From positions 452,458 through 516,457 of the forward strand of contig WTGJ01000027.1 of assembly GCA_011523615.1 (NCBI GenBank): a DNA stretch of 64,000 nucleotides, written 5' to 3'. The position numbers and the translations under genes were made by a program. The notes under the pieces were generated by a model that was not told the DNA's origin, ran no database searches, and saw only the letters and a list, made by a program, of their open reading frames with translations. Source of the stretch: Chloroflexota bacterium. GTDB lineage: Bacteria; Chloroflexota; Anaerolineae; Aggregatilineales; Phototrophicaceae. Shown here in pieces: positions 31,618 through 52,831 of the stretch (positions are counted from its first letter, which is position 1; every line of letters begins with the position of its first letter).

Positions 31618-31641
31618 ATAAAAAAGGTGGGCAAACCCACC
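31618..31641 (-). terminator. rho-independent terminator after the giant membrane-protein operon
   Basis: The minus strand reads GGTGGG-TTTG-CCCACC followed by TTTTTTAT: a perfect 6-bp GC-rich stem, a 4-nt loop and a 6-T run. It lies 70 nt downstream of the stop at 31711. Confidence 0.8.
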
Positions 31642-31710: not shown

Positions 31711-34700
31711 TCATGAGTCCGGCGCGACGAGCGGGGATTGCGCATGGGGAGGGTATTGGTACATTTGCTTGGTTTCGTGATCGACGATCCAGACGTTGCC
31801 CCGTTGATCGACCGCCACATCGGTGACATTCTGGAAGTTTCCGGTTTGACCGATTTCAAATGGGCCTAGGCTGGTGAGGCAGTTCCCGGCCGCATCCAGA
31901 ATGACCACCCGCTTCTGGTGGGGGACACTCAGGTACACCAAGCTGCGCAGCGGGTCCACCGCAACCTGAGCCGCTACGCCAGCCCTTTGTCGCGAGAAAG
32001 GAAACGCAAAACTGCGCAAGAATTCTCCAGTGAGAGAAAAGACAGAAACGCGTTGATTCCACCATTCGGAAACATACAACTCATCGTTCAGGTCATCCAA
32101 TGCGATCGAACCCGGTTCTTCCAACTGACCCGGCAAACTGCCGCTTTCGCCGATATCCAGCAGATGATCGCCGGTTTCAGAATACACCCGGATGCGCTTG
32201 TTGCCCGTATCCGCGATGTACACATTCCCAGCGGAATCCACGACCAAATCCCTAGGACCCCAGAACCCACGCAGTGGCTCGAGAGGAGCATTGGCGCCGT
32301 AAGCGAAAGGTTCACCCCAGGCCTGTTGCACTGCACCAGTTTCATCGAGGCGAAGGAAGCGATAATTCCAGGTATCCGCAACGAGGATTTCACCCCCTGC
32401 TGCGAAAGCGACGCCATTCGGCCGGTTCAGTGTGAGATCAGTGGATGGTTGTTGGCTGAATGCGGGTGGATTGACCGCGGGGTCGATTTCACCAAAACGC
32501 CCAAGAGCAGCCAACAGCTGCCCGGTCTTGTCGTACCAACGGATCTGGTGGTTCATTTCATCGGCAATCAGGATACGATCGTTTTTCACCGCAAGCCCCG
32601 CCGGGTAGCCGAGTGACTCATCGGCCCATTGCAGGGTTCCTTGCGTTTCGGTCGTTTGGCTGGGGCAAGAGTTTTCGCCATTCGTTGATGGAGGGCTGAA
32701 AGAACCCACAGCGGCGGGTTCATAGAGCCAGATTTGTGATGCCAAATCGCGGCGCACATAGAGATACATGTGGTCGGCAGGATTCCAGTCTTGGATAGCG
32801 GAGGAAACCCCCTTTGCCTCGAAGTAACGGGCGTAATCACGTTCCCAGAAAATATCCAGCAAGCCCGAACGCAATTGAGGGGAATATGGATTGTCGGCAG
32901 AAAAGTCAAAGAGCTGGTTGATTCTCGCCGGAGTCAGGTAAAAATAATCTTGATTCGGCCACCATAGACGCAGGTATTTTTGCGTCGTGTAATCGAGTGA
33001 AAGAATATCGCCATATTGATGATGCAGATTGGCGCCAAGGAGCAACACATCTTCTTGCTGCAATGTGTTCAGATCCGGTTCCAGGCCATAGTAATTCGCG
33101 TTGGGAAAATCACGCAGGTACCATTCCATGGGCCAGGACACGCCTTCCCCGGCATACCCCATTCGTAGGTCTTTGCTGTTGGCACTGCGCTCACTGATCT
33201 CATGCAACAAATCCATCACGTATTTCACCTGCGGTGCCGCATGCGCATAGACTAAGAATTCTTTGGCGTAGTCATAATGGATGTAAGATGCGGAAAAAGC
33301 GGTGCGCATCGTCAGCGCGCAAAGGATGATCAGCAAACCCAGTTGACTGCTCTGCCGGATGATGAACCAGCCTTTTTGTTTGCCGATCCGGTAAAACAAA
33401 CCGAGAACCAATAGGGTAAACAAAACCGAACCGAACCACAGGGTGGTGTGCCGGATCTCCAGCGTCGTCAAGCCACGGAACGGCCCCGATCCGCGCAAGA
33501 TGGGGTTGACGGTCCGCCAAGCGCTCCAGGTCAACGCGGGCATCAAGAGCAAAGGCAACCACCCATAGGTCAGGATGGATTCCCAATCCAGCGTTTTCAG
33601 GAACGCGCCAAAGATAGAGGCCGACAACAGGATCAAAGGAAAGGCCAGGTGGATGCCCAACCACGGCATCTTCTCTCCGGCAAAGGTGTAACCATAAATG
33701 GCGAGAACAGCCCACCAGGCAAAGAGGGCCAACCAGGGGATGCCTTGCAGTTCTTGCGGAATCCGGTTCATTTTTTGGCGCAAACCGTTTCGCCAAAACC
33801 GACCGATTCCCATAACAGCAGCCAAAAAAGAACCGATGATCGGCAGGTATTCGTACAAAGGCAAGATGATGCCGCTGTAATAGTATTGCGGTTGAGAACC
33901 CCGCCTCACCCCTTGTTGGCCCAGCCAATATCCGAGGCTGCTCACAAAGCCAGAGCCCAGGCCGGCGATGTTGGTGAAGAAGGATGTGAATAAAATGACA
34001 TAGAGTCCCAGATAGATCGCTGCCAGTGTGAGCCAGAGTTTCGCTTCCCAGGCGAGACCGATGGCGATGGGGATGAGGAAAAAAGGCAGGACGGGCAGCA
34101 GAGATAACGCGATTTGCCAGAGCTGAGTGCCGCTGTGAAAGAGGAGTGTGGTTTCATCGTAACCGGGGAAATTCAGCGGTATGAGGATGCGAATGGATTC
34201 GACGGCGGATCGCGCAATATCCGCCAGTACTTGCGCATTGATTTCTTCACCGTACGTGAAGCTCGAACCCATGGCGGTGATCAATAAGGCAGATAGCCAG
34301 GGTATGGTGAATGTGACGATCAAGACCAGAACATCCCATTCGGGGAAAGAGCGCAGGGCCCGCCAAAATCCACGTTTTTTCAGCAAAAGGGCGCCGATTG
34401 CCACCACGATGGTCAGCACCCAGGCCAGGTAAAAGGGGATGAAATTCACGCGGTAGTTTTCGAGATGGCTTTCTGCGGAAGGCGCAATCTGCGGGATCGC
34501 TTCGAGCGAGCGGGATTCCAAAGCGACCAAAGCGGCGAAGACCAAGAAGGCCAAGACAGACAGGAGCGTGATTTCCCGCCAGGGTAAGGGGGTTCGGCGA
34601 TGCACGTAAATCGCGGGGCCGATGACCATCGCACTCACGCCCAGCCAGAGCAAACCACTCCAGAGCAGAAAACTCTGCACATTCGAACCCTCACTCCCGG

Positions 34701-35553
34701 AGGGCGAAGGATCTGGCGAAGGCAGCAGTCCCAACCCGGCCGTGATGGCCTGCCATCTTCCTGCCAAGGAGTCTGTCCCTTCGAAGGCGATGGCCAATAT
34801 CCCGGACATCACGATGGCAGCGAAAGTACCGATCAGGATGGCGAGGATGAGCAGCTGGAAGGTGCGCCTGAGTGGTATGTTCCAGGATTTCTGTATGACG
34901 CGAAAACAACCATAAAGGAACAGATACGAAGCGAAAATGCCGATGTAAATGAACGTATTTTCTTTCGAGGCAAAACAGAGCAGCAAACTGATCGCCGTAA
35001 TGTACAAGTAGCGATTGCGTTTTTGCTGCGGTTCATGCTCTTCCAGATAGCGCAGGATGGACCAGAGCAATATGACGGAATAGAAGAGCACCGGAGTGTC
35101 GTGCCGTATGTAGCGGTTGTAATACAGGGTGATGGGGGAGATCAGCAACAAGATGCTAGCGATGAGAGCCGTCTCTCGCCCCAACCACCTGCGGAACAAA
35201 AGGGGCGATAACACGAGCAGAATCCCTAGCACCGCGGGGTAAATCCGCGCGGTAAAATCATTGGCGCCCAATACTGCATACAGTAAGGCATTCACTTCAA
35301 ACAGCAGCGGCCCATGCATCAACGGCGTATGTTCGAAGTTTCCTTCTTGTTGGAACAGATATGAGAAATACGTATGCAGGCTTTCATCGTGACTCATCAC
35401 GCGAGCGTCCAGGATGTACAAACGAGTGAAAACCGCCGCCAGGAAAATCAGCACATACCAGGCAACTTCCCAATTGACGCTCAGATCACGGGAAAGCCAG
35501 GCCGGCAATAGGCCTTTGTCCACATCATTCCGGTGAGCTTCTGTGCCAGCCAA
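31711..35553 (-). CDS. giant polytopic membrane protein: TIGR03663-like (PMT/GT-C-like) N-terminal domain plus a C-terminal six-bladed NHL beta-propeller
   Basis: 1280 aa. The first loop has HDESLH (D56-E57) and LMHGPLLF (H80-G81-P82), followed by more than 15 hydrophobic helices. The last 300 aa contain six repeats of the NHL type (e.g. PRDLVVDSAGNVYIADTGNKRIRVY). TTG start; the exact start is uncertain. Confidence 0.75.
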   Translation of the reverse strand: MAGTEAHRNDVDKGLLPAWLSRDLSVNWEVAWYVLIFLAAVFTRLYILDARVMSHDESLHTYFSYLFQQEGNFEHTPLMHGPLLFEVNALLYAVLGANDFTARIYPAVLGILLVLSPLLFRRWLGRETALIASILLLISPITLYYNRYIRHDTPVLFYSVILLWSILRYLEEHEPQQKRNRYLYITAISLLLCFASKENTFIYIGIFASYLFLYGCFRVIQKSWNIPLRRTFQLLILAILIGTFAAIVMSGILAIAFEGTDSLAGRWQAITAGLGLLPSPDPSPSGSEGSNVQSFLLWSGLLWLGVSAMVIGPAIYVHRRTPLPWREITLLSVLAFLVFAALVALESRSLEAIPQIAPSAESHLENYRVNFIPFYLAWVLTIVVAIGALLLKKRGFWRALRSFPEWDVLVLIVTFTIPWLSALLITAMGSSFTYGEEINAQVLADIARSAVESIRILIPLNFPGYDETTLLFHSGTQLWQIALSLLPVLPFFLIPIAIGLAWEAKLWLTLAAIYLGLYVILFTSFFTNIAGLGSGFVSSLGYWLGQQGVRRGSQPQYYYSGIILPLYEYLPIIGSFLAAVMGIGRFWRNGLRQKMNRIPQELQGIPWLALFAWWAVLAIYGYTFAGEKMPWLGIHLAFPLILLSASIFGAFLKTLDWESILTYGWLPLLLMPALTWSAWRTVNPILRGSGPFRGLTTLEIRHTTLWFGSVLFTLLVLGLFYRIGKQKGWFIIRQSSQLGLLIILCALTMRTAFSASYIHYDYAKEFLVYAHAAPQVKYVMDLLHEISERSANSKDLRMGYAGEGVSWPMEWYLRDFPNANYYGLEPDLNTLQQEDVLLLGANLHHQYGDILSLDYTTQKYLRLWWPNQDYFYLTPARINQLFDFSADNPYSPQLRSGLLDIFWERDYARYFEAKGVSSAIQDWNPADHMYLYVRRDLASQIWLYEPAAVGSFSPPSTNGENSCPSQTTETQGTLQWADESLGYPAGLAVKNDRILIADEMNHQIRWYDKTGQLLAALGRFGEIDPAVNPPAFSQQPSTDLTLNRPNGVAFAAGGEILVADTWNYRFLRLDETGAVQQAWGEPFAYGANAPLEPLRGFWGPRDLVVDSAGNVYIADTGNKRIRVYSETGDHLLDIGESGSLPGQLEEPGSIALDDLNDELYVSEWWNQRVSVFSLTGEFLRSFAFPFSRQRAGVAAQVAVDPLRSLVYLSVPHQKRVVILDAAGNCLTSLGPFEIGQTGNFQNVTDVAVDQRGNVWIVDHETKQMYQYPPHAQSPLVAPDS

Positions 35554-35569
35554 CTTTATGCTACAGCGA

Positions 35570-37480
35570 TTAGGGATGGTTCACGGATTGATTCAACACA
35601 TCCCGATGCAGCCATAACACCATTGGGATGTACTCGAAAAAATGAGGGTCATTCATACCCTGGTTGTGATGGTCATTGAGCTGAGTCAAGAAATGCGCCC
35701 CGAGTGGTCGCGCTTGCTTCACGCGAGTGATCGAAAAAGGATGTCCGATGTAGGGAGCAGCCAGGCGTTCGCCAGCCTCTTCCGGGGCAATCGGGTCACT
35801 GATCACGAGGGGAAAACCCGCTGCGAGTTCGAGTTTGGGGAGCATCCTTACTTCGTCGAAATCACGCAACAACCATAGCATTGTGTGATATTGATCATCG
35901 CGAACCCCGGCTGCGGTTACCCAGGCGACGGATGAAGGTTGAGCCCAATTGCTTTGCTGAAGCAAATCTTGGAGCGTTTCATGCAGATGCGCATTCTGCA
36001 CGGTATTGAGTTGCGGCAGCCATGCGCTTCTGGCGCTTGCCTGATCGGCGGAAGCCACACGGATGCTGCTATGGGTCGTGTAGAGAAGCAGGAATATCGC
36101 CAATGTAGGCAGGAAGAAACTCCCAATGGATGAGTGTTTCGCAACGTACTGTAAAGCCAGCAAAACGACAAAATACAGGAGAAACCCGATCGCTATCCTC
36201 ATCAACCACCAAATGGCTGCCCCCGATGGTATGGATGGCGTGCCATGGAGCAAGCCCAACGCCGATTGCATGAAATCCGTTCGTACGATCAGGAAACGAA
36301 ACTGCAGACCGACCCACAACAGCAATCCGAGGGAAAGGGCATACAACATACCGCAGAAAGCAACATTGCCGGAGAACCCTCGCTGGTTGAGCGTTTGCAC
36401 GGCGCCCTGCCCTAGTCTGATCAAGCAATCTGCCACGATGAGGATCAATGGGATGCTGAGCCAACTCGCATGTGCCGGCTGGGAGCCCCGATCCAGCGTC
36501 AATAAGACGAGCAGTGCCACCAACCAGGCGAGCGAAAAGCGATTCAGTGGCGTCAGCTTCCTTTCACGCCGGAGCGTGATGAGGGCAACGACGGCGAGCA
36601 GCCAAAACCCCAGCTCATAAAACAGACTGACCCGCAGATCCTGCAAGAGATCACCCGGCTGGATCCAGCCGCTTAAGCTGGCAAGCAGCTGATTGCCGAC
36701 ATGATTCAAGCCACTCCATTGAGTGAGTAGCTGGGTGCTGAGCAGGATCACCGTGGCCAGACCGACCGCTAAGCTTTTGCGCCAGCGCCATTCTTGAAGG
36801 AGCTCCAGGAATCGACGCTTTATGGGTGCATTTTTTCTGAGCGTGAAGAATAAAGCGACCGATATGCTCACAAACAACAGGTAGCTGCGCCCATCTGTCA
36901 GGAACAAAGTGAGGAATGAAAACACTGTGAAGCAATGTTGCCAAGAGCGTCGTTGTCGCGATCGCGCTTCAGCCAACAGACATCGTTGCAGAGAAAGAAA
37001 AGTCAATGCACAGCCGATCAGTGCCCAGAGCGCACTCTCTGCATAACGCGATGAGAGGAGCACCAATGGCGAGAGGAGCAGCAAAATGCTCATGGTCCCG
37101 CAATGCTCCACCCGCATCCACTTGCTGAACAAAAAAGGAGAGAAGATCAAGCAAAGCCCCAACACGGCATTGGGGAATCGAAACCAGCCAATCTCGGGGC
37201 CGAACAGGGATAAGAGCATCTGATGGCTGGCATGAAGGAGTGGCGAAACACTGGAACCAGAAACGCTAGCCTCCACCGAATGTCCCACGAATGAAAGATC
37301 CATTGCCGAGACCACCGCCGGCAATTCGCGCGGCTGCAAGGGAATGACCGTAAGATGGGAGAATCGTGAAAAGATGGCAAAGCTCAACAAAACCAACCCG
37401 GCAAGAGACGAGAAACTGACTTTGAACCATATTTCGTCGGTCGTGTGCCTGACCATTCGCTGTGCGAAACTCGCCGTCAT
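35570..37480 (-). CDS. polytopic membrane protein, divergent TIGR03663-like paralogue lacking the DE / HGP motifs
   Basis: I prefer ATG at 37480 (MTASFAQRM..., 636 aa), which gives an ATGA start/stop overlap with the upstream gene. Its loop 1 aligns by eye with the 1280-aa protein (PRELP vs HDESL; PLLHAS vs PLMHGP; FRFPNAVLGLCLIFSPFLF vs ARIYPAVLGILLVLSPLLF). Confidence 0.65.
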   Translation of the reverse strand: MTASFAQRMVRHTTDEIWFKVSFSSLAGLVLLSFAIFSRFSHLTVIPLQPRELPAVVSAMDLSFVGHSVEASVSGSSVSPLLHASHQMLLSLFGPEIGWFRFPNAVLGLCLIFSPFLFSKWMRVEHCGTMSILLLLSPLVLLSSRYAESALWALIGCALTFLSLQRCLLAEARSRQRRSWQHCFTVFSFLTLFLTDGRSYLLFVSISVALFFTLRKNAPIKRRFLELLQEWRWRKSLAVGLATVILLSTQLLTQWSGLNHVGNQLLASLSGWIQPGDLLQDLRVSLFYELGFWLLAVVALITLRRERKLTPLNRFSLAWLVALLVLLTLDRGSQPAHASWLSIPLILIVADCLIRLGQGAVQTLNQRGFSGNVAFCGMLYALSLGLLLWVGLQFRFLIVRTDFMQSALGLLHGTPSIPSGAAIWWLMRIAIGFLLYFVVLLALQYVAKHSSIGSFFLPTLAIFLLLYTTHSSIRVASADQASARSAWLPQLNTVQNAHLHETLQDLLQQSNWAQPSSVAWVTAAGVRDDQYHTMLWLLRDFDEVRMLPKLELAAGFPLVISDPIAPEEAGERLAAPYIGHPFSITRVKQARPLGAHFLTQLNDHHNQGMNDPHFFEYIPMVLWLHRDVLNQSVNHP

Positions 37481-39924
37481 GGGTTTCGCTCCATCATGCC
37501 AAAACGTGTGGCATAAGCCAATGAACGGCCACTGGAATCTTCTTGAAGGCAAATGGGGATCAAATTCTCAGCGAATATCTCTTCCGCAGGCTGTCCGTAG
37601 ATGTATTGTTCGTGGCTGCCCCATATGATGTAGTCGATTTGGTAACGATCGATGATCTCTTGACGCAGCGGCCAATCGTCACTGCGATACAGGGCATCGA
37701 TATCCCGTGGGCGGAGGCCGACCGTATGTGGATAACTACCCCCACGCCATTGGTTTTGATGCGGCTCCCAGGCGATCACAGTGGGGATGCCGCTGATCGT
37801 GGCAATGCGCCCATAGTTCAGGTCATAGGAACGCCGTCCTCCTGGAGCCGGGATCCCTTCCGCAATGACCATCTCGCCAGCGGAGGCCATATCGGACAAA
37901 CATTGACTGAGTGCCCAATCGCTAGCGGAATAGGATGCATTTGCATTCCCCAGGGTAAGAGTTCGGTTTGGGCTTTCTTGCATTCGGCTGTGCATCCCCG
38001 CCGGTAGATACAGCGATCCCAAAATGATCACCAAAGAGAGCGTACCACCGATGACAATTCGCTGGCTAGGGTGATGCTGCAGCAAGTGGTAACTGGCGTA
38101 AGCTGCGGCCACCGCGAACAAGAGCCAGGCTTGGAAATAGAGTTTGAACACTGTGTTCATGCGGCTACCGAACAAGTCCCGTATGTAGATAAATTCTGGG
38201 ATGAGTATCAGGCTGATTCCGGCGATGGCGAGCAGTACGGTGAATGAAAGCGCCGGCTTCGACCTTCTCAACCGCAAGCTAAGCGTCGAAAGGATGAAAA
38301 AACTGGCAAACAAAAATACTTGGCTGAGTGAGTATTCCCATTGCATACGACGATGCAAGAAAGCAAGAATCCCATCCTGCAGACTCGCACCGGTTGTGAA
38401 TAGGTGTAGGGTGAGCGTCAAAGCACTCATCAGGAAGGCAACTGACACCGTCAGTGAAAGCCCGAACCGCCATTCGGGTGTGATCGACCATAATTTACGC
38501 CCCATCGCTAAAAAGAATACGGCATACAGGATGATGAACGGGGCGAACATCACCCACAGCTGCTGGATGCGCGTCGGGTGATCCAAGTTGGGCGCCAAAC
38601 CACCGGCTTGACTCCGAATGTGGAGCAACAGAGGCGCAGCAAACAGGAGGAGCCAGCACAGGGTTTGAGCGGCGAACTTCACTGAGTTTCGCCAATCCAC
38701 CGTGTTGCGGGAAACCTCTGCACCCATTCTCCGCAAACGCAACGCCTCTGCCGCCAACAGCAACACAAAAAAGACAGGGGCATCCCAGGCATTGGTACAC
38801 AGCACAGCCCCCAAGACCATCCCATAGACACAGATATCTCGGAATTGAGGTGGTCTCGGATGGGAGAAACGGTGCCAGGCGAAAGTGATCATGAGCGCGA
38901 TGAGCGGTATGCCATATACATGTGGATGGTTATCCCCCAGGAGGAAACTGAAGGCCGGAAATTCATCGATCACTTCTCGATGGGTTTCCGGATTGCATTC
39001 CTGCTCATCCCCAGGTGTGCGATCGACGATGGTACGGGCGGCGGCAAACCACCACCAATATCCTTTGCCAGAACCTTCACAGCGGTCTTTGGCATCCATG
39101 AACTGGAGATAGCCCGGTGCCGCAATTCCTCGCTGATAGGGCAATTCAATGAACAGGTAATGGCCATTGCTGAGCCACAGGGCAAAAAACACGGTCAAGA
39201 GCGCGCCTGAGATACTTCGGTAGCGGTGCTTCGGCGCGGATTCTGGATCAGCACTGGAATCCGAATGACCGCGAATCAGATTGTAGCCCGTGCCAAAAAT
39301 GGTGATGCCGCTCAACGCGAGCCAGGAAGCGGAGCTAAGGTCAAAGGCAACCGCATTCGTCACGCCACTGAGCTTGGCCAGGGCGGCCGAAATCAGGTAG
39401 CCGAAATAGTAGTAACTGACGCTGTGACCACTCAGCCAGGCATCGTTGGGCGGAAATTGGGGCGATTGGTTGATGGCACTCAACAGCATGAGTTCCATGG
39501 GCTTTTCTGTCGATGCCAAGTCCTGAATGCGGGCGCGAAACAAAGACCACCCAACCAATAGGATGACGAAAAGCAATTCGCCACAGATGAAGGCAATTTT
39601 GTGTTCCTGCCACCATCTTTTCCAATCGGAAGCCGCCGTTCGACGATCAAAACGAGAAAAATAGAGACTTGCGCAGCACACCAGCAGCCAACAAAAGGCC
39701 AAACTACCGGCTGAGTTTTGCAAAAACCCTAAGCTCACCAACCACCAGAACAGCCCTACCACGGCGATCAACCCGAGAATTCGGCTGAGGAACATCCCTC
39801 GATCGGCCAAATGGCTCAGAAAGTTCCAGGTAAGTGGCAGCACTGCGACGCCAGCCATGCTCAACAGCAACCACCACCGCAGGACATAGCCACCGTCGCG
39901 CGCGAGCCAATCAAGGATGAGCAC
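37477..39924 (-). CDS. DUF2298 / TIGR03662 'Chlor_Arch_YYY' family membrane protein (single-domain form)
   Basis: 815 aa and highly hydrophobic. It has the SYYYFGY motif (YYY codons at 39406-39414), an ADRG motif after TM1, and a C-terminal ...IDYIIWGSHEQYIYG tail. It is clearly paralogous to the C-terminal half of the 1786-aa protein. GTG start 2 nt after the upstream stop. Confidence 0.75.
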   Translation of the reverse strand: MLILDWLARDGGYVLRWWLLLSMAGVAVLPLTWNFLSHLADRGMFLSRILGLIAVVGLFWWLVSLGFLQNSAGSLAFCWLLVCCASLYFSRFDRRTAASDWKRWWQEHKIAFICGELLFVILLVGWSLFRARIQDLASTEKPMELMLLSAINQSPQFPPNDAWLSGHSVSYYYFGYLISAALAKLSGVTNAVAFDLSSASWLALSGITIFGTGYNLIRGHSDSSADPESAPKHRYRSISGALLTVFFALWLSNGHYLFIELPYQRGIAAPGYLQFMDAKDRCEGSGKGYWWWFAAARTIVDRTPGDEQECNPETHREVIDEFPAFSFLLGDNHPHVYGIPLIALMITFAWHRFSHPRPPQFRDICVYGMVLGAVLCTNAWDAPVFFVLLLAAEALRLRRMGAEVSRNTVDWRNSVKFAAQTLCWLLLFAAPLLLHIRSQAGGLAPNLDHPTRIQQLWVMFAPFIILYAVFFLAMGRKLWSITPEWRFGLSLTVSVAFLMSALTLTLHLFTTGASLQDGILAFLHRRMQWEYSLSQVFLFASFFILSTLSLRLRRSKPALSFTVLLAIAGISLILIPEFIYIRDLFGSRMNTVFKLYFQAWLLFAVAAAYASYHLLQHHPSQRIVIGGTLSLVIILGSLYLPAGMHSRMQESPNRTLTLGNANASYSASDWALSQCLSDMASAGEMVIAEGIPAPGGRRSYDLNYGRIATISGIPTVIAWEPHQNQWRGGSYPHTVGLRPRDIDALYRSDDWPLRQEIIDRYQIDYIIWGSHEQYIYGQPAEEIFAENLIPICLQEDSSGRSLAYATRFGMMERNP

Positions 39925-39926
39925 GT

Positions 39927-42900
39927 TCAGCCATCTTGTACTTTGAGGATCCTGGCAAGTGCGGCAATTTCTTGGTCCCCCCTTTGGTAGGAGAAGGGAT
40001 ATTCAAAGACGATCTCCAGGAATTCCTGTTCGATCATCACCTCGAACTTCGTCAGCCCATCGACGAATCGCGCCGGATCACTTTCATCCTTTCGATCGTA
40101 CAGCGCATGCTCCAGTGTCCCCACAATGATGTATTGCACATCATAGGCCTGCAGGATTCTCCTGGCATCTTGGATATCAGGTGTCGTGTAGAAGGCGGTG
40201 ACGTTGGCCGCTCTTCGCTGGATCAACTCGCTCATGGGTGGAAAAGTTCGTTGCTGCTGTTGGTGGTATTGCCACCCGATCACACTGGGCAGACCCGTGA
40301 AAGACGAGATGCGGCCATTCCACTTGTACTCACTGCCATAGTTGCGCCCTTCGATGATGGTTGGCGCGCCACGGACATGACTCAGCAACCATTGAATGAT
40401 CTGATGGTCCGTTTCGAGCGGATAGTGAACATCGCCTTCCTGATGATGCGCATACCGCAGGAATTTCAGGCCATCCAGGGTCATGGGCGTTTCGGCTGCG
40501 AAACGCAATTCGGCACGGGCAAGAGTCGCCAAATATGGGTAAGAAGCGGTGATTGCGAACAATGCCGTGGCAACCACATACCAAATCAATCTGAACCATC
40601 GCCCCCACTTTTTTCGCACATTCCAGAGTATGGCGAAAGCGATGCCTCCAAACAGACTGAAGTATTGCCAGCTCATGAAATACAGTTTGAACACCGTGTT
40701 TTGCCGGCCGATATCTTGGCGGATGCGAATGAATTCAGGGATCAAAGTGAGGCCCAATGCGACCAGGACCATCCCAAGCACCATGCGAAGATCGTCCGAT
40801 TTTTCTAAGAAAAGTAAAAGGAGACCCCAAACAATCACTGGGATCAGGATCAACAAGATTTCCCGACCTTGAGCGGCCAGAAAGATCGTGACCAGAAGCA
40901 AACCCGCACCGCCCGAAAAGAGCAGTGCTTTCGTCCTCCTATCGAATCGTTTGAATTGCTGCCTGAAAGCATTTCGCTGGCGGTAGCTCATCCAGAAAAG
41001 CAGGCCGACGAGCAAAAAGAGGAAATGTCCCTGAATGCTGAGGTATGCGGTGATCGGGGTGAATGGTCCGCGCCAGAGCTCGATTGCGGTGGCCGTAGTG
41101 GCGAACCACGCTCGGAATGGGGCGGTGGCGAGGAGATTCACCGCCAAAAAAGAAGCCAGGATGATCAGCAACTCGATCACCGCTCTTCGATTGAAGATCA
41201 CCGATGATGCACGAAGCGCTCGCGTATGAGCACCTGAGTGTTTGCTTTCCTTGAGCTTTCGTTGCCACCAGGAAAACACCAGGGTGGCTGAACTGATGAG
41301 GGTGATGGGGATCCAATCCCAGCTGTTGGTCGCCCAGGTCAGGCCGGTCGCCACGGCCCAGGCGAAGCGCACACTCACTCGCAGCCAAAGACTTCGTTGA
41401 TCCTGCCCGATCGACAACAGCTCATACACTACAAAAGCCATGGACAACATCAGGATGGGAAGAGCCATCATATGGGCATGCAGATCGCCATACAGGAATG
41501 TAAAGAAGGGAAATTCCGTGATGGAGTGATCTTGTATGGAATGACTGATGACCCGAGTTGGGTTCCACATCCATTCATGACCCGCGACCGGAAGTTGGCT
41601 TCCTTGGAGCCAGGCTTCGAAACCAGCAAAGGTAGTGACCAGGAAATTGGCACTTTCATTCGGCAATACCGATGCGCCGATTTCATGGATCGCTTGGAGC
41701 CAGATGCGGAATGTTTCCAAGTTTCCCAGCAACAGCAACAGGGCCAGCGCCGCCAAACCGGCCCATTCGGGACGAAGGGTGAGGTTTTTCATCCTGGCAG
41801 CGACGTTGGTGGCAATGGTAAAAGCGGCGACTCCCGTCAGGGCAAACAGGGTGGGGATGATGAGATTGTAAGCGAGGGAAGGGATGACCCCGCTCAATAT
41901 AGTGGGGACGCCCACCAGTACGAAACCGAAATAGTAATAATTGATGTAGCTACCGGAATACCAGGGGTTAAGGGGTGGGAAGATTTCACTGCGCAGCACC
42001 CCATTGAGGTAGGCGCTATCCATCATCTTTTCACCGCCAAAAACAGGGTGCCACAAGTCCGGATTGCTGAGGCGGATGAGCAAGCAGAACAGGAAAAGTG
42101 CGAGGAAGAGCAGCTCGATCGCTGCCCATCGTTTCCAGTGTGTTTTGAGGTGGTTTGTGAAGTGCTCCTGTTGTTTCCAGAACAGGGCAATGCTGGCTGC
42201 CATAGCGAGGAGGAGCAAGGACCACAATCCGCGCTGATTCCAGATAGGCAACTGGGCGCTGGTGAGCAACCAGGCCGACCAACCGAGAAAAACCAGACCG
42301 ACAATTTTGGCCAATCCATAGCCACGATCGGCAAAGTTGGGAGAGGCGTGGAATAACGGGATCCAAGCAGCGAAACCGATGACAGTGATGGTGATCAACC
42401 AGGCAACGATGGCAAGGACTGGGTTGCGGTTGACCGAACGAGAGGCATCGAACGGATCGAAGCCTGTGGATCCTGCAGTCTGAATTGCCAACTGCTCCTG
42501 GGAATACCGCAACTGGCTGGGCACTTCATCCACTTCACGCGAAGAGGGTGAATGGTAATTCGCAACCTTCGCCGTACATTGCGTGGCCAGTGGGTGATTG
42601 GGGTCCAAGAATGGACAATCACCATAAATGGGAGATGCATGGATGGCGGCCAGCGATACCTTGTGCAGTTCGGCTTGCACTTGCCGGAGATCAAAGTCTG
42701 GTTTCTTTTGAAAAATGAAGACGGCGGGATGATCGTAGACATGAAAGGCTTCATCCGCTTCCCATTGATTGAGCCATGTGGGAGGGGGGTGCAGCGGTAG
42801 GCGCTGATCCAGAATCCTCAGGTTGCCCAATTGGAAGCCTTCGACAAACTGGGCTACCAGGTCGAAACCCAGTTTGCCTTGGAACAGCAGGTGATAGAAA

Positions 42901-45287
42901 TGGTTGCTCAGGGGGAAACGAGTCGGATTTCTCGCTTGGGAATCGTAGAAACGATTGCTGCTGATCGTCAAATAGTCAGAACGAGATAAGCCATTGACCA
43001 GGTTTTCGAGCTTGCGGTCATCATCTTCGGCGGCCATATTCATGTTGTACTGGAGCACCTGGTCCAGGTATGGCGCGCGGTACCAGCACGCGTCGGTCGT
43101 GGCTGGCGAGGCTGGCTGGCAGGATCGAACCGCACTGAGGCGATCATCCCAGGTGCCCTCGTCGCTGACCACAGAACCACCGATGAATAGATCCCCACCC
43201 TGTATCAGCAAGCGGATGTGATAAGCTTCCCCTTTTCTGAGTTGTATTTCATCTTTAACCGGAATTACGTAGGCACCCCCCAAAGGATGGTGTGTCGTCG
43301 CGAAGGGGTCGGATAGAGATGCATTGATGAGGAGCTTGCCCTGTGCGTCCCACAATTCCACCTGAAGGAGCAAGTCTTCCGCTCCTGCGCTGCGCCTGCC
43401 CAAATGTGGGAAATACAGATCCTGGATGATGCCATCCTGAGTGACGTGAAAAGTCGCTTCTGCTGCAATGCCGGCCGTGAGGAGGCTACTCCGCTGCAAT
43501 AAGAGTTGGTCGCCAGGCACATCCGCGCTGGATCGATTGGCCAGAGCGATGTTGATCAAAGGTATATCGAGCGGTTGTCCCTTCAGACGGATCGTCACAT
43601 CGGCAGGAATGTAGTCGTGGATCCATGCACTACCCTGGATCCGGGTTAAGGGTTGCCGATAGATATGATGGAACATCGCTGCCCAAAGGAAAGAGAGCAG
43701 TGGCAAAGCAAGCCAAAGATACGGAAGCACAATGCGGAGGAGTTGGTGTCGGTTTTGGCTCGTGCTGAGTCGGTGCCTCTCGAGCATCTCACAGAGAAAA
43801 CAGGCGGCGATCAGGGAGAGAGCGCCGTAAATGGGCAGGAAATAACGCATCGTCATCACCCAGGCGCCGCCCATCCAACCGAAGTAACCCAATACCCAGG
43901 CCAGCAGCAAAAGGTATTTAGCGCTTGCCGCATGGCCGCGAAGCCAGCGCAGGCTGAAATAGCCGATGCCCAGCAAAGCCGGGATGCCGGCACTCAATCC
44001 CAATCCCCAAAGCAAGATGTCTTTGAGGGGATAGAAGTAGGGCAATCGGCCGGCCCATTGCCAATTGGGCGGCCAGTCCAGGTTTCCACTCGCCATCGTG
44101 ATGGAGTGTTGGATATCGAGCAACCACCGCTCATTGAGACCCGAGATCAACCCTGGCCCATGGAAAGCATACGGGTTGAAGAGGCGGAAGAAAAACAAGG
44201 TGGCGAAGCAACAGATCAATAGGCCGACCACTTCTGGAAGATATGCAATTCCCCTCCTCCGCTGCTCCTTGACATTCAGATGGAGTATTCGGTAAATCCG
44301 CACGAGGAAAGCGATGGCGATGATGCCCAAGAGGGGAGCCAGGTTGATCCGGCTGGCCATGGCCGCTGCCGTGGCAAAACCGAAGCCCAAGGCCGCCAGC
44401 CCATTGCCGCCACGATATACGCGATGGGCAAACCACAATGCCAAAATGCAAAAGAAATTGGCGGCAGCATTCACGGTGGCGAAGTGCGAGAGTTGTATGG
44501 CTAAGGGAGAAAAGGCGTAGAATGCCGCAGCGAGCAAACCAGCGCGTTTGCCCTGAAGCTGCCGGCCCATCCGGTAGATGAAGAAGACGGACAGCACATC
44601 CAGTGTGGATGAGAGAAATCTGCCCGCGCTCGCAATTTCATCGTGCCAGAGAAACCCTCCAGTGGATCGGCCGCTCTCGTTCCATCCCAACCGGTGGAAC
44701 AAGGTATCGGCGGTTTCAGCCAGGGCACGGGTCAAAAAGAGAGGCAAGGGCCCGTAGGCGAAGTTGGTGCTGCCGGCATTGTGCGGATTCAACGGGGAAC
44801 AGCGGGTATCGAAGTAGCGACCCACGCCGGCCGAATGAGGATATTTTTCGAGGCAATGAGCGGCCTGTTCTGTAAATGAAATTGCTTCTGCTTGCCGATG
44901 ATCGGTGGTGAAAGACAAAATCGTGCAGTCGTCGGCCAGCGCGCCGTTGATTCGATATTGCTGCAAACACTGCTGCGATCGTTGATGAATCGCTTCCCTG
45001 TCTTCCCTTCTGATATCCGCATCGAACCGGAGGCGGGTCATCAAATCGACCAAATAGCGTTCATCCGGATGCAGCAAGGAACCTTGATCCCAGTTGTGAC
45101 CGGTGAAGCGCAGGAATATGGCAAGGAATAGAATCAGCAAGAACAACGAGTGGCAGTGGAGAAACGGACGCCAACGTTTCCAACTGATGAGGGATGAAAT
45201 TCCGTTGGGTAGAGAAAATGGGTTGATTTTCCGAATGTGGGCCACTGTTTTTCCAGTTGACTCGTACACCCATTGAAGCTTACGCAA
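39927..45287 (-). CDS. giant fusion membrane protein: GT-C/TIGR03663-like N-terminal domain, central soluble domain, and C-terminal DUF2298 / Chlor_Arch_YYY domain
   Basis: 1786 aa. The first loop has HPDERY (D75-E76, nt 45060-45065) and FAYGPLPLF (aa 176-184), separated by a ~80-aa insert with 4 Cys. A beta-rich central region follows. A second TM block has ADRG and NYYYFGF (YYY codons at 41931-41939) and the C-terminal ...VQYIIVGTLEHALYD. TTG start. Confidence 0.75.
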   Translation of the reverse strand: MRKLQWVYESTGKTVAHIRKINPFSLPNGISSLISWKRWRPFLHCHSLFLLILFLAIFLRFTGHNWDQGSLLHPDERYLVDLMTRLRFDADIRREDREAIHQRSQQCLQQYRINGALADDCTILSFTTDHRQAEAISFTEQAAHCLEKYPHSAGVGRYFDTRCSPLNPHNAGSTNFAYGPLPLFLTRALAETADTLFHRLGWNESGRSTGGFLWHDEIASAGRFLSSTLDVLSVFFIYRMGRQLQGKRAGLLAAAFYAFSPLAIQLSHFATVNAAANFFCILALWFAHRVYRGGNGLAALGFGFATAAAMASRINLAPLLGIIAIAFLVRIYRILHLNVKEQRRRGIAYLPEVVGLLICCFATLFFFRLFNPYAFHGPGLISGLNERWLLDIQHSITMASGNLDWPPNWQWAGRLPYFYPLKDILLWGLGLSAGIPALLGIGYFSLRWLRGHAASAKYLLLLAWVLGYFGWMGGAWVMTMRYFLPIYGALSLIAACFLCEMLERHRLSTSQNRHQLLRIVLPYLWLALPLLSFLWAAMFHHIYRQPLTRIQGSAWIHDYIPADVTIRLKGQPLDIPLINIALANRSSADVPGDQLLLQRSSLLTAGIAAEATFHVTQDGIIQDLYFPHLGRRSAGAEDLLLQVELWDAQGKLLINASLSDPFATTHHPLGGAYVIPVKDEIQLRKGEAYHIRLLIQGGDLFIGGSVVSDEGTWDDRLSAVRSCQPASPATTDACWYRAPYLDQVLQYNMNMAAEDDDRKLENLVNGLSRSDYLTISSNRFYDSQARNPTRFPLSNHFYHLLFQGKLGFDLVAQFVEGFQLGNLRILDQRLPLHPPPTWLNQWEADEAFHVYDHPAVFIFQKKPDFDLRQVQAELHKVSLAAIHASPIYGDCPFLDPNHPLATQCTAKVANYHSPSSREVDEVPSQLRYSQEQLAIQTAGSTGFDPFDASRSVNRNPVLAIVAWLITITVIGFAAWIPLFHASPNFADRGYGLAKIVGLVFLGWSAWLLTSAQLPIWNQRGLWSLLLLAMAASIALFWKQQEHFTNHLKTHWKRWAAIELLFLALFLFCLLIRLSNPDLWHPVFGGEKMMDSAYLNGVLRSEIFPPLNPWYSGSYINYYYFGFVLVGVPTILSGVIPSLAYNLIIPTLFALTGVAAFTIATNVAARMKNLTLRPEWAGLAALALLLLLGNLETFRIWLQAIHEIGASVLPNESANFLVTTFAGFEAWLQGSQLPVAGHEWMWNPTRVISHSIQDHSITEFPFFTFLYGDLHAHMMALPILMLSMAFVVYELLSIGQDQRSLWLRVSVRFAWAVATGLTWATNSWDWIPITLISSATLVFSWWQRKLKESKHSGAHTRALRASSVIFNRRAVIELLIILASFLAVNLLATAPFRAWFATTATAIELWRGPFTPITAYLSIQGHFLFLLVGLLFWMSYRQRNAFRQQFKRFDRRTKALLFSGGAGLLLVTIFLAAQGREILLILIPVIVWGLLLLFLEKSDDLRMVLGMVLVALGLTLIPEFIRIRQDIGRQNTVFKLYFMSWQYFSLFGGIAFAILWNVRKKWGRWFRLIWYVVATALFAITASYPYLATLARAELRFAAETPMTLDGLKFLRYAHHQEGDVHYPLETDHQIIQWLLSHVRGAPTIIEGRNYGSEYKWNGRISSFTGLPSVIGWQYHQQQQRTFPPMSELIQRRAANVTAFYTTPDIQDARRILQAYDVQYIIVGTLEHALYDRKDESDPARFVDGLTKFEVMIEQEFLEIVFEYPFSYQRGDQEIAALARILKVQDG

Positions 45288-45373: not shown

Positions 45374-45402
45374 TTGACAGTCAATGGGGTGGAGATTAAA
45401 TT
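45374..45402 (+). promoter_or_regulatory. sigma70-type promoter for tRNA-Gly (and possibly rplY)
   Basis: TTGACA (45374-45379), 17-nt spacer, TAAATT (45397-45402). The predicted start site falls within a few nt of the mature tRNA 5' end at 45412. Confidence 0.55.
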
Positions 45403-45411
45403 AGCGGGGGT

Positions 45412-45483
45412 GCGGGTGTAGCTCAGGGGTAGAGCACTTGCTTCCCAAGCAAGGTGTCACGGGTTCGAATCCCGTTACCCGCT
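45412..45483 (+). tRNA. tRNA-Gly (anticodon CCC)
   Basis: Hand-folded cloverleaf. Acceptor GCGGGTG/TACCCGC (one G-U), D stem GCTC/GAGC, anticodon stem CTTGC/GCAAG, loop TTCCCAA, T arm ACGGG-TTCGAAT-CCCGT. CCA is not encoded. Confidence 0.9.
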
Positions 45484-45529
45484 TGAGTCAATGCCCGCAG
45501 AGTATGCGTGAAATGATGGGAGTGTTGGC

Positions 45530-46192
45530 GTGGCACAAAGCTTCACATTGGAGACGGAACCCCGCCTGATCACAGGCAAGAAGGTCAAACGATTGCGCCA
45601 GGATCACATCGTTCCTTTGAATGTGTATGGCAACCACATCCAGGCACAGAATTTGCAAGCGGATTATCGGCAACTGGAAGTGGTATTGCTGAATGCGGGT
45701 GGAACCAACTTGATTGAACTGCAACTCCAGGGAAAACCCATCAATGTATTGGCCCGCGAAGTGCAGCGAGATCCGCTCAAAGGGACGATCGAACACGTAG
45801 ATTTTTACGCAGTCGATATGGAATCCAGGGTGACTCTGGATGTGCCCATCGTGTTCGAGAATGAGAGCCCGGCCGTGACCACTCAGGACGGCTTGCTGGT
45901 CGTCGGTCCCAATTCCTTGAGCATCGAAACATTACCCAGCCAATTGCCGGACCAAATCTCAATCGATTTGGCAGAACTGTTGAATATCGGTGATTCCATT
46001 TCTGTGAGAGACCTGGAATTGGATGAAGTGATCACCATTTTGAACAATCCGGACGAGACGCTTGTCTCCGTCATCCAGCCGGCGGCGGCCAGAGGTGAAG
46101 AGGAAGAGGAACTCGAAGACGCTGAATTGCTGGCGGAAGGCGAGGATGAAGTTGCGGAAGATGGTGACGCTGAGGAAGAAGAGTCGATTTAG
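45530..46192 (+). CDS. rplY: 50S ribosomal protein L25 / general stress protein Ctc form
   Basis: 220 aa. GKKVKRLRQDHIVPLNVYG...NVLAREVQRDPLKGTIEHVDFYAV is the L25/Ctc signature, with an acidic C-terminal tail. GTG start with GGGAG 7 nt upstream. Confidence 0.88.
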   Translation: MAQSFTLETEPRLITGKKVKRLRQDHIVPLNVYGNHIQAQNLQADYRQLEVVLLNAGGTNLIELQLQGKPINVLAREVQRDPLKGTIEHVDFYAVDMESRVTLDVPIVFENESPAVTTQDGLLVVGPNSLSIETLPSQLPDQISIDLAELLNIGDSISVRDLELDEVITILNNPDETLVSVIQPAAARGEEEEELEDAELLAEGEDEVAEDGDAEEEESI

Positions 46193-51373: not shown

Positions 51374-52831
51374 ATGTTGACATGGATTTGGATGGCATTC
51401 ATCATCCTGGCTGCCCTACCCTGGGCCTTGTATGTACGCGCTTTCTGCCATGATCGGGAGAGCAATGCCTTAGTGACTTGCCTCTGCCTCAGTTTCAGTT
51501 TGGGCAGCCTTACTTTGATCATGTTGTGCCTGGGGATCTTGGGTATCCCGCTGCGCTATTGGACCATCACTGTCATCTATCTCCTGTTGATGGCTGCAGG
51601 CTGGCGCCTCGCTTGGCGCAGAAGAGCAGCCATTGTATTGCGCACCTTCTGGCCCGAAGGTTGGGTCAGACGCAGCATTTGGCTGATATGTGCTGCCGTC
51701 GCAATGGCACAATGCTTCAACGCCGGCTATTGGCCCTTCTTCCGCGAAGATGTCCTGGGGATCTATGCGCCCTTTGCAGCCACCGTCGTGGAACGGCAAG
51801 CCTTGATTTCTCTCAGCGGCTTGCCCGATGCCATGTATCGTTACGAGAGTTATCCGATGATGGTGCCGTTGAGCTTCGCTTATGTCCATATGAGTGCAAA
51901 TGGCATTCATGAATATCTGGCGAAGACGGTGGTCACCCTATTGTCGCTGGCCTGCATCCCGGCGGCATATCTTTTGGGGTATGCCAGCCATTCTCAAAAA
52001 ACAGGTTGGTTGAGCGCCGCTTTGCTCGCGTTGACGCCGGCATTTTGGCGTTGGGCTTCTGCCGGTTACGTGGATCTGCCGATGGCATTTTTCGCGACGA
52101 TGTCCGCTTATTTCGCGCTGCGTCTTTGGCAATCGGGGCACCACCGTGACGCCTTGCTCAGCGGCATCCACCTGGGAATGGTCACATGGGTCAAAAATGC
52201 GGGCTTGATCTTGTTGCCGATCCTGACGCTGTGGTTTTTCATGGGAATTCGCCGGGGAAAGATCCAGCTGCGTCATTGGGTCATCCTCGTTTCGTCCGCT
52301 CTGGTTTCTGGTGCCATTTGGTATGCATGGACGTTCATCCAGGCGGGTGTGATCGTACCCAAAACCGCTTGGACGGATGAAGCGCAACACTCTTTGGCCA
52401 CCCTGCTGGTGTTCATTTCGCAGTGGGAGAATTATAGTTTGGTAGGCTGGTTGATCCTGCTGGGAATGGCCACCGTGCTGTGGAGTTCGTTCCAGGATGG
52501 TTTCCGCAAACCCGGCCATCTCTTGCTATTGCTCATCGTAATTCCGTACTGGTTGGTTTGGTGGTGGTTTGTGAGTTACGATTCACGTTTCATCTTGCTG
52601 TTTTTGCCCATTGCCTGTGTTTTTGGCGCGCTGATCATTGATGCTGCAGCCAGAGCTGCTTTGCCGAACCTGCGATCGGCAATGGCTGCCGCCCTGTTGA
52701 TTTGTGCCGCGCTCTGGGCGACCCATGGGATCCTCATCAGCATCCAATTCAAGGACGAGATCCTAGCGAATCCCATCCTGAGTCACGAGGAAAAAATCGC
52801 TATTGTGCGTCCGCCTGCACCCGAATCGTGA
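51374..52831 (+). CDS. GT-C fold glycosyltransferase-like membrane protein (PMT_2 / GT39/GT83-like)
   Basis: 485 aa with about 12 hydrophobic helices. An acidic FFREDVLGIYAP motif sits in an early loop. The overall organisation resembles ArnT/PMT-like enzymes. The family assignment is tentative. Confidence 0.5.
   Translation: MLTWIWMAFIILAALPWALYVRAFCHDRESNALVTCLCLSFSLGSLTLIMLCLGILGIPLRYWTITVIYLLLMAAGWRLAWRRRAAIVLRTFWPEGWVRRSIWLICAAVAMAQCFNAGYWPFFREDVLGIYAPFAATVVERQALISLSGLPDAMYRYESYPMMVPLSFAYVHMSANGIHEYLAKTVVTLLSLACIPAAYLLGYASHSQKTGWLSAALLALTPAFWRWASAGYVDLPMAFFATMSAYFALRLWQSGHHRDALLSGIHLGMVTWVKNAGLILLPILTLWFFMGIRRGKIQLRHWVILVSSALVSGAIWYAWTFIQAGVIVPKTAWTDEAQHSLATLLVFISQWENYSLVGWLILLGMATVLWSSFQDGFRKPGHLLLLLIVIPYWLVWWWFVSYDSRFILLFLPIACVFGALIIDAAARAALPNLRSAMAAALLICAALWATHGILISIQFKDEILANPILSHEEKIAIVRPPAPES

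Follow-up and report, generated by a model that had tools for sequence, protein, structure and literature searches.

We analyzed a 64,000-nucleotide stretch of DNA from a Chloroflexota bacterium (referred to as the window), in which the open reading frame at 39927-45287 on the (-) strand is a real gene for one polytopic membrane protein with a predicted total of about 27 helices. In a single, conserved frame this long protein carries an N-terminal membrane module of the PMT_2 type (the N-module), for which a GT-C glycosyltransferase fold is predicted, and a complete YYY/DUF2298 module; a first-pass annotation of the 1786-residue product had claimed a fusion of a GT-C-like module with a complete YYY module. 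The gene is the first member of a conserved four-gene operon. We propose, with a probability of roughly 0.6, that the product is a bimodular enzyme at the outer face of the membrane, which would use lipid-linked sugars to build an envelope glycan or glycoprotein.

The features of the gene are as follows (residues numbered from the annotated start).

39927..45287, (-) strand: whole long open reading frame, 1786 codons plus stop; probable true start at GTG 45245, giving 1772 amino acids (aa)
43656..45182, (-) strand: N-module, aa 36-544, about 11 transmembrane helices, predicted GT-C fold of the PMT_2 type (Pfam, AlphaFold, Foldseek)
45054..45071, (-) strand: HPDERY, aa 73-78, opening external loop 1, with H73, P74, D75 and E76 invariant (105 sequences aligned)
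44799..44969, (-) strand: four cysteines of external loop 1, C107, C121, C145 and C163 (alignment; topology from loop charge)
44736..44762, (-) strand: FAYGPLPLF, aa 176-184, closing external loop 1, with Y178 and G179 invariant
43077..43610, (-) strand: predicted extracytoplasmic beta-sandwich domain, aa 560-737, with C723 and C734 (secondary structure of the model; cysteine conservation)
42663..43073, (-) strand: predicted extracytoplasmic alpha/beta domain, aa 739-875, with invariant SNRFYD and HVYDHP (AlphaFold)
42423..42662, (-) strand: low-confidence linker, aa 876-955, pLDDT 44-63, with C891 and C904
40521..42422, (-) strand: YYY/DUF2298 membrane module, aa 956-1589, about 16 predicted helices (PF10060, TIGR03662, AlphaFold, Foldseek)
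39930..40520, (-) strand: C-terminal globular domain of the YYY module, aa 1590-1786, with GWQYHQQQQR (1671-1680) and YIIVG

Conservation of the fused architecture

A check of the open reading frames of the window gave one uninterrupted frame of 1786 codons. A homologue search of 5.8 billion proteins returned 740 matches, the best 120 of which were examined. At least 92% of the long protein is covered by 104 of these 120 (lengths, 1718-2080 aa), and both HPDE and NYYY are present in all 104 aligned homologues. The organism labels among the best 120 were Chloroflexota, Anaerolineae, Aggregatilineales, Phototrophicaceae or an unclassified 'bacterium', and the function labels were only 'DUF2298/YYY domain-containing' or 'hypothetical'. 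The closest named genome is a metagenome-assembled genome (MAG) of the Phototrophicaceae, at 50% identity. Public precomputed annotations place PF13231 and PF10060 together on most of the best 120 homologues and so already show the layout; the window adds one member with a clade-specific loop insertion.

The distribution was determined in 151 genomes evenly spread over the Chloroflexota. DUF2298 was detected in 112 of them, usually twice per genome, with the first copy in a long frame (1450-1810 aa) and the other in a short one (740-890 aa). The N-module was found in 98 of the 151, nearly always in one long frame with a DUF2298 module, and the fused layout is therefore the normal phylum-wide form of this Chloroflexota family and no oddity of this genome. 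In two families, frames of 2500-2770 aa combine the N-module with two YYY copies; the open frames at L008:4192-11694 (-) and L009:7295-15184 (+), of 2501-2630 aa, have the N-module and middle domain joined to a tandem pair of YYY modules. Five MAGs labelled Pleurocapsa, Bacteroidetes, beta proteobacterium or Methanosarcinales (L016, L052, L040, L068 and L080) also carry the Chloroflexota-type gene at 31-36% identity in the best segment, and these bins are probably mislabelled or contaminated.

Could the long frame be an artefact, two genes joined by an error of assembly or by a frameshift? The junction at aa 876-955, a poorly conserved linker of low model confidence, speaks for this reading. 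The same unbroken architecture, however, was observed in more than 100 independent assemblies, complete chromosomes among them, and in most sampled Chloroflexota genomes it is free of internal stops. An artefact is thus extremely improbable, and the fusion is genuine.

A split counterpart was also found. In family f25 (loci L001 and L002), a gene for the N-module and middle domain (625-642 aa) lies directly upstream of a YYY gene (797 aa), followed by two genes of the TIGR03663/Agl23 family. The presence of this split counterpart indicates that the two modules are functionally linked. Fused and split forms do not alternate along the phylogeny, a pattern considered in the first-pass annotation; throughout the phylum the fused form prevails. 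Stand-alone N-module genes measure 621-664 aa overall, and two of them, G077:C74 (L003:8571-10562, 664 aa) and G138:C1 (L004:8382-10244, 621 aa), occur in genomes with no DUF2298 match, indicating that the N-module can exist without a YYY partner.

In a maximum-likelihood tree of YYY modules, calculated with no archaeal outgroup, a 'short' and a 'fused' clade were separated with support of 100/99, and most genomes have a member of each. The single copy of f25 falls in the short clade, and both copies of the double forms fall in the fused one. By this tree the two clades are old. The archaeal controls of the genome scan indicated that the DUF2298 family is common to Chloroflexota and Archaea.

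The annotated start of the long gene is uncertain, because no ribosome-binding site is visible at TTG 45287 and because a database homologue with 98% identity (P0003) is 1772 aa long, 14 residues shorter, in agreement with a start at GTG 45245 (codon 15). The start candidates are TTG 45287, GTG 45269 and GTG 45245, with no clear Shine-Dalgarno sequence at any of them.

The N-terminal module

In a Pfam scan of the long protein, PMT_2 was matched at aa 221-329 (E 1.7e-11), the generic PMT_2 core only, and a permissive scan of the N-module half (E ≤ 10) added only a weak PIG-U match. The AlphaFold model of aa 1-950 (pLDDT 83.3, pTM 0.85) contains eleven membrane helices. When this model was searched with Foldseek, ranks 1 to 33 (E ≤ 0.003) were all GT-C enzymes, including Pmt4, AglB, EmbA/B/C, ArnT, ALG9/12 and STT3; the weaker matches included PglB, AftD and AftA, mixed with partial beta-sandwich matches. 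The predicted model with these 33 best matches suggests a GT-C membrane fold of the PMT_2 type.

The conserved acidic residues expected in the first extracytoplasmic loop of such enzymes are present in the N-module as the invariant D67 and D75-E76, and H73, P74, D75 and E76 are all invariant in the 105 aligned sequences. We regard D75-E76 as the candidate catalytic acidic pair. The distance between HPDERY and FAYGPLPLF, put at about 100 residues in the first-pass annotation, was measured as 101 from E76 to Y178.

The first-pass annotation had also described the N-module as TIGR03663-like and had taken the fusion as a Rosetta stone for a physical complex between TIGR03663 and YYY proteins. Such an assignment could appeal to the DE dipeptide after helix 1, to the later aromatic-Gly-Pro motif, and to the TIGR03663 and YYY genes being neighbours that co-occur. 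The TIGR03663 profile (cut-off 126.25 bits), however, did not match the 1786-aa protein at E ≤ 0.01; hhalign of the N-module against the 1280-aa TIGR03663 protein of the same operon gave a probability of 0.5% (E 0.11), and the BLASTP match (E 0.05) was confined to the generic core. In Agl23 proteins DE is followed shortly by HGP. In the N-module DE is present at 75-76, HGP is absent, and its nearest analogue, YGP, comes 101 residues past DE versus 22 in the 1280-aa member (DE 56-57, HGP 80-82); the short gap reported for that member was thus confirmed, with 22 residues in place of 23. In every operon examined, moreover, separate TIGR03663 genes are kept beside the fusion. Membership of the N-module in TIGR03663 is refuted at the family level, and a Rosetta-stone fusion of that kind is highly improbable. 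Because the N-module does not belong to TIGR03663 and genuine TIGR03663 genes stand separately, the fusion ties YYY to a third GT-C family. The link between TIGR03663 and YYY rests on the conserved operon and on co-occurrence, not on the fusion.

The YYY/DUF2298 module

The C-terminal half was matched by PF10060 (DUF2298) at aa 1001-1541 with E 1.8e-98 (331 bits, cut-off 27.8) and by TIGR03662 (Chlor_Arch_YYY) at aa 957-1734 with 475.6 bits (E 3.5e-142, cut-off 300.25), the latter over positions 2-703 of the 727 of the model. The neighbouring 815-aa protein also passed both families (TIGR03662, 381.3 bits). As read by eye in the first-pass annotation, the second membrane block aligns along its length with this neighbour (BLASTP, aa 960-1735 against aa 14-781, 24% identity, E 3e-30), and the shared motifs ADRG, YYYFG and YII(V/W)G at the tail all lie within this alignment. 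The motifs of the module are NPD (1075-1077), GGEKxMD (1084-1090), NYYYFG (1116-1121), ITE (1256-1258), DLHAH (1268-1272) and RQNTxFK (1528-1534). The YYYxG signature is contained in NYYYFG, with Y1117-Y1119 and G1121 invariant, and two acidic residues of the module, D1077 and E1086, are likewise invariant, also in the 815-aa paralogue. The same motifs are kept by both paralogue clades. The description of the TIGR03662 family already alludes to long forms with an extra N-terminal region.

The AlphaFold model of aa 940-1786 reached a pLDDT of 86.4 and a pTM of 0.90. With Foldseek, the top matches of the YYY module were AglB (E 3.8e-6), AftA (TM-score 0.38/0.49) and ArnT, and its last 200 residues matched the C-terminal globular domain of AglB-S2 (3vu0_B) with a probability of 1.0 and a TM-score of 0.47. 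These predicted structures suggest that the YYY module is itself GT-C-like and carries an AglB-like C-terminal globular domain.

The similarity to AglB raises another possibility, that the YYY module is a diverged oligosaccharyltransferase and that the machine glycosylates surface proteins instead of building a polysaccharide. AglB is the best structural match of the module, and the match extends to the globular domain; the family is shared with Archaea; and the module contains an S-I-T-E motif at 1255-1258 with an invariant Glu, which we take to recall the TIXE/SVSE motif in loop 5 of oligosaccharyltransferases. By chance alone, however, a protein this long should contain about one match to the [ST][IV]xE pattern, and the order of motifs is unlike that of oligosaccharyltransferases. 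A regular-expression search of the long protein gave no WWDYG, and a permissive Pfam scan (E ≤ 10) of the YYY module gave neither STT3 nor any other GT-C family. The module matches AftA and ArnT as well, whose substrates are not proteins. We therefore consider an oligosaccharyltransferase unlikely.

Comparison by hhalign of the N-terminal with the C-terminal membrane module, and of the middle with the C-terminal soluble domains, gave E values of 0.04-0.19, that is, no similarity, and an origin of the long protein by internal duplication was rejected. Since the N-module is not TIGR03663 and the two modules are unrelated at the profile level, two different GT-C-type families are joined in the long protein.

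Topology, middle domains and cysteines

With the N-terminus placed inside, the short loops of the N-module predicted to be inside contain 23 Lys or Arg in 107 residues, while those predicted to be outside contain 4 in 60. From this loop charge, loop 1 (with the DE motif and the cysteines) and the whole middle region are predicted to be extracytoplasmic. The claim that the cysteine-bearing loop is external thus agrees with the model, the Foldseek fold and the Lys/Arg distribution. A manual count of helices and charged loops suggests that the approximately 16 YYY helices start and end outside, which fits an outside middle domain and would place all invariant polar motifs on the outer face.

The beta-rich soluble region described after the N-module is also present in the AlphaFold model, beta-rich at about 560-737 and then alpha/beta at 739-875. 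With Foldseek the beta-sandwich domain matched PHR and phage-fibre beta-sandwiches, weakly and over part of their length. The invariant residues of the alpha/beta domain are N778, R779, Y781 and D782 within SNRFYD, and V850-P854 within HVYDHP; the same domain is present in the stand-alone N-module proteins of 621-664 aa.

Between HPDERY and FAYGPLPLF exactly four cysteines were counted (C107, C121, C145 and C163), in agreement with the first-pass annotation, which had assigned all four to one insert. Only part of this assignment holds. C145 and C163 are invariant in all 48 aligned long forms, while C107 and C121 occur together only in 8 of the 48, the subclade of the window, inside an insertion of about 38 aa. 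The other aligned long forms have either a loop of 56-76 aa with two cysteines or a loop of 151-160 aa with a different insertion and two cysteines. The latter insertion marks a third clade (e.g. P0042, P0052, P0057, P0064 and P0076) and brings no added cysteine. Loop 1 is a hot spot for insertions. In stand-alone N-modules the loop is short, with about 35-40 residues from DE to YG by manual count, and cysteines are absent at the positions of C145 and C163.

Elsewhere, C723 and C734 are invariant in the 48 long forms, and C891 and C904 are each present in 32 of them. All eight cysteines of the soluble regions lie in predicted outside regions as close pairs, and the genome has genes for one VKOR homologue and for four proteins of the DsbA-like type. 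As the loop 1 cysteines are gained and lost together, the alignment points to two putative disulfides, C107-C121 and C145-C163, and the first loop is probably disulfide-braced.

The four-gene operon

The other members of the operon are listed below.

37477..39924, (-) strand: stand-alone 815-aa YYY paralogue of the short clade, starting 2 nt past the stop of the long gene
35570..37552, (-) strand: 660-aa degenerate Agl23-like protein, with DE changed to RE and HGP to HAS (TIGR03663, 9.3e-6, below cut-off)
31711..35553, (-) strand: 1280-aa protein of the TIGR03663/Agl23 family with a C-terminal NHL propeller (TIGR03663, 1.1e-65; NHL, 2.6e-29)
31626..31641, (-) strand: terminator-like hairpin and T-run closing the four-gene unit (sequence scan)

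Loci from other genomes were scanned with profiles built from our own alignments. The order long protein, short YYY, degenerate Agl23-like and Agl23 with NHL was observed in the window, in L005 and L006 (two other families) and partly in L012, with open frames of 618-665 aa for the degenerate Agl23-like protein and 984-1289 aa for the Agl23-NHL protein. The operon is kept in roughly two thirds of the sampled Chloroflexota genomes. Of the sampled genomes, 104 match DUF2298 strongly, and TIGR03663 was detected in every one of these; three genomes contain TIGR03663 alone.

In the degenerate Agl23-like copies (35570-37552 (-) in the window, L005:11678-13531 and L006:13442-15328), the Asp of DE is replaced, giving RE, RE and NE, respectively, and HGP is replaced by HAS, HLN and AHL. 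The gene looks like an old, retained, non-catalytic paralogue. The 815-aa and 660-aa frames overlap by 76 nt as listed (37477-37552), and the true start of the 660-aa gene is probably located further downstream.

Upstream of the long gene, a scan for sigma-70-type sequences gave no convincing promoter. A gene for tRNA-Gly(CCC) at 45412-45483, followed by that for ribosomal protein L25/Ctc (region 45374-46192 (+)), is divergent from the operon, and the sigma-70-like match (10/12) at 45374-45402 belongs with the tRNA gene. In the whole genome (2.64 Mb), 21 PMT_2-type matches were detected, 19 of them above the cut-off, which is a very high load of GT-C glycosyltransferases for a genome of this size. 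Four of the 21 are in the window, two in genes of the operon and two in a second locus at 51374-55139.

Proposed function

From the observed architecture, homology, conservation, operon and predicted topology, we infer folds, catalysis, donor, acceptor and complex formation as follows. Polyprenyl phosphate would first be loaded with sugars in the cytoplasm, and the Agl23-type proteins plausibly carry the lipid-linked sugars to the outer leaflet. There the PMT_2-type and YYY modules, in one chain, would act one after the other to transfer sugars onto an envelope acceptor, which may be a glycan, a glycolipid or a surface protein. The short YYY paralogue would be a third catalytic unit or a partner subunit, and holding the acceptor may fall to the beta-sandwich and the NHL propeller.

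Several observations weigh against this proposal. No gene for a lipid-sugar synthase adjoins the operon; the genome contains four UbiA-family genes, all distant from it. For the YYY module the Foldseek TM-scores are low (0.28-0.49), its GT-C assignment comes from the predicted structure alone, a profile search of the whole family against PDB chains gave nothing at E ≤ 1, and the STT3 family of Pfam was not matched, as described above. In a full-text literature search DUF2298 was found only in a gene-neighbourhood table and in a database of Cys residues in DUFs, and a search for TIGR03662, TIGR03663 and 'YYY domain' gave only unrelated matches, mostly to the Y_Y_Y domain. Finally, Agl23 is GT-C-like and has the invariant DE, yet it is reported as a flippase, and a conserved DE is therefore no proof of a transferase. 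Because of this precedent the bimodular transferase is given no more than the probability stated at the outset.

The same precedent leads to an alternative in which only one module transfers sugars, or neither does, and the other serves in lipid-carrier binding, in flippase-like translocation or as a scaffold, as proposed for Agl23. The Haloarcula Agl23, a candidate flippase for hexose-phosphodolichol, is a TIGR03663 protein that resembles PMT-type GT-C proteins and yet translocates lipid-linked oligosaccharide in proteoliposomes (PMC11182771). The conservation of the degenerate Agl23-like paralogue across families also indicates that non-catalytic GT-C-like proteins are tolerated in the operon. 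In both modules, however, invariant acidic and His residues are clustered in loops predicted to be outside, among sequences down to about 33% identity, and the same motifs are retained by both YYY paralogue clades. This alternative is accordingly rated as rather unlikely, though less so than the oligosaccharyltransferase.

We tentatively put forward a joint reading, which as a whole has somewhat less than an even chance. YYY/DUF2298 would be an unrecognised GT-C family distantly allied to AglB/STT3-type enzymes; the operon, with its long PMT_2-YYY protein, short YYY protein and two Agl23-type proteins, would form a self-contained extracytoplasmic glycosylation machine; this machine, shared in a simpler form with some Archaea, would build an envelope glycan or glycoprotein in most Chloroflexota; and the long and short YYY proteins would form an obligate heteromer.

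Comparison with known systems

Soils, sediments and wastewater all harbour abundant Chloroflexota, a phylum whose cell envelope is poorly understood. To our knowledge, no family of the four-gene operon has been tested in bacteria. The product of the operon, once shown, would give DUF2298 a function, and it could bring to light a major polymer of the envelope or a route of protein glycosylation that is shared with Archaea. The observation in the window itself adds little beyond the clade-specific loop insertion.

Among known families, the C-terminal half of the long protein is a full-length member of TIGR03662/PF10060 with YYYxG and does not differ in kind; the subclade of the window differs from other TIGR03662 long forms in that loop 1 of its N-module is longer by an insertion of 38 aa with two Cys. 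With Agl23 of Haloarcula hispanica, which is associated with a flippase, the N-module shares the GT-C-like character and the DE after helix 1, and Agl23-family genes stand in the same operon as the long protein and co-occur with it genome by genome. Unlike Agl23, the N-module has no match to the family model and no HGP at 22 residues past DE, and the Agl23 proteins are encoded by separate genes.

The N-module shares the PMT_2 match and the predicted GT-C fold with the PMT_2/GT-C class A enzymes (ArnT, protein O-mannosyltransferases, EmbA/B/C and AftA/AftD), as well as the acidic DE pair after helix 1, predicted to face outward. Like the Emb and AftD enzymes, it is followed by soluble domains predicted to be extracytoplasmic. 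It differs from class A enzymes in being fused to a second, unrelated GT-C-like module and in its expanded, Cys-containing loop 1, and it has no characterised close sequence relative among them. AglB, STT3 and PglB (GT66), which include the best structural match of the YYY module, have the same order of a membrane domain and an outside globular domain. The YYY module differs from GT66 in lacking WWDYG and an STT3 profile match, in the order of its motifs and in three extra N-terminal helices.

The operon as a whole follows the logic of the three-component systems made up of a synthase, a flippase and a GT-C enzyme (ArnC/ArnEF/ArnT and GtrA/GtrB/Gtr), in that flippase-type genes lie beside GT-C modules that would act outside. 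In contrast to these systems, in which there is one of each component, the operon has no adjoining synthase and encodes three GT-C-type modules together with two Agl23-type proteins.

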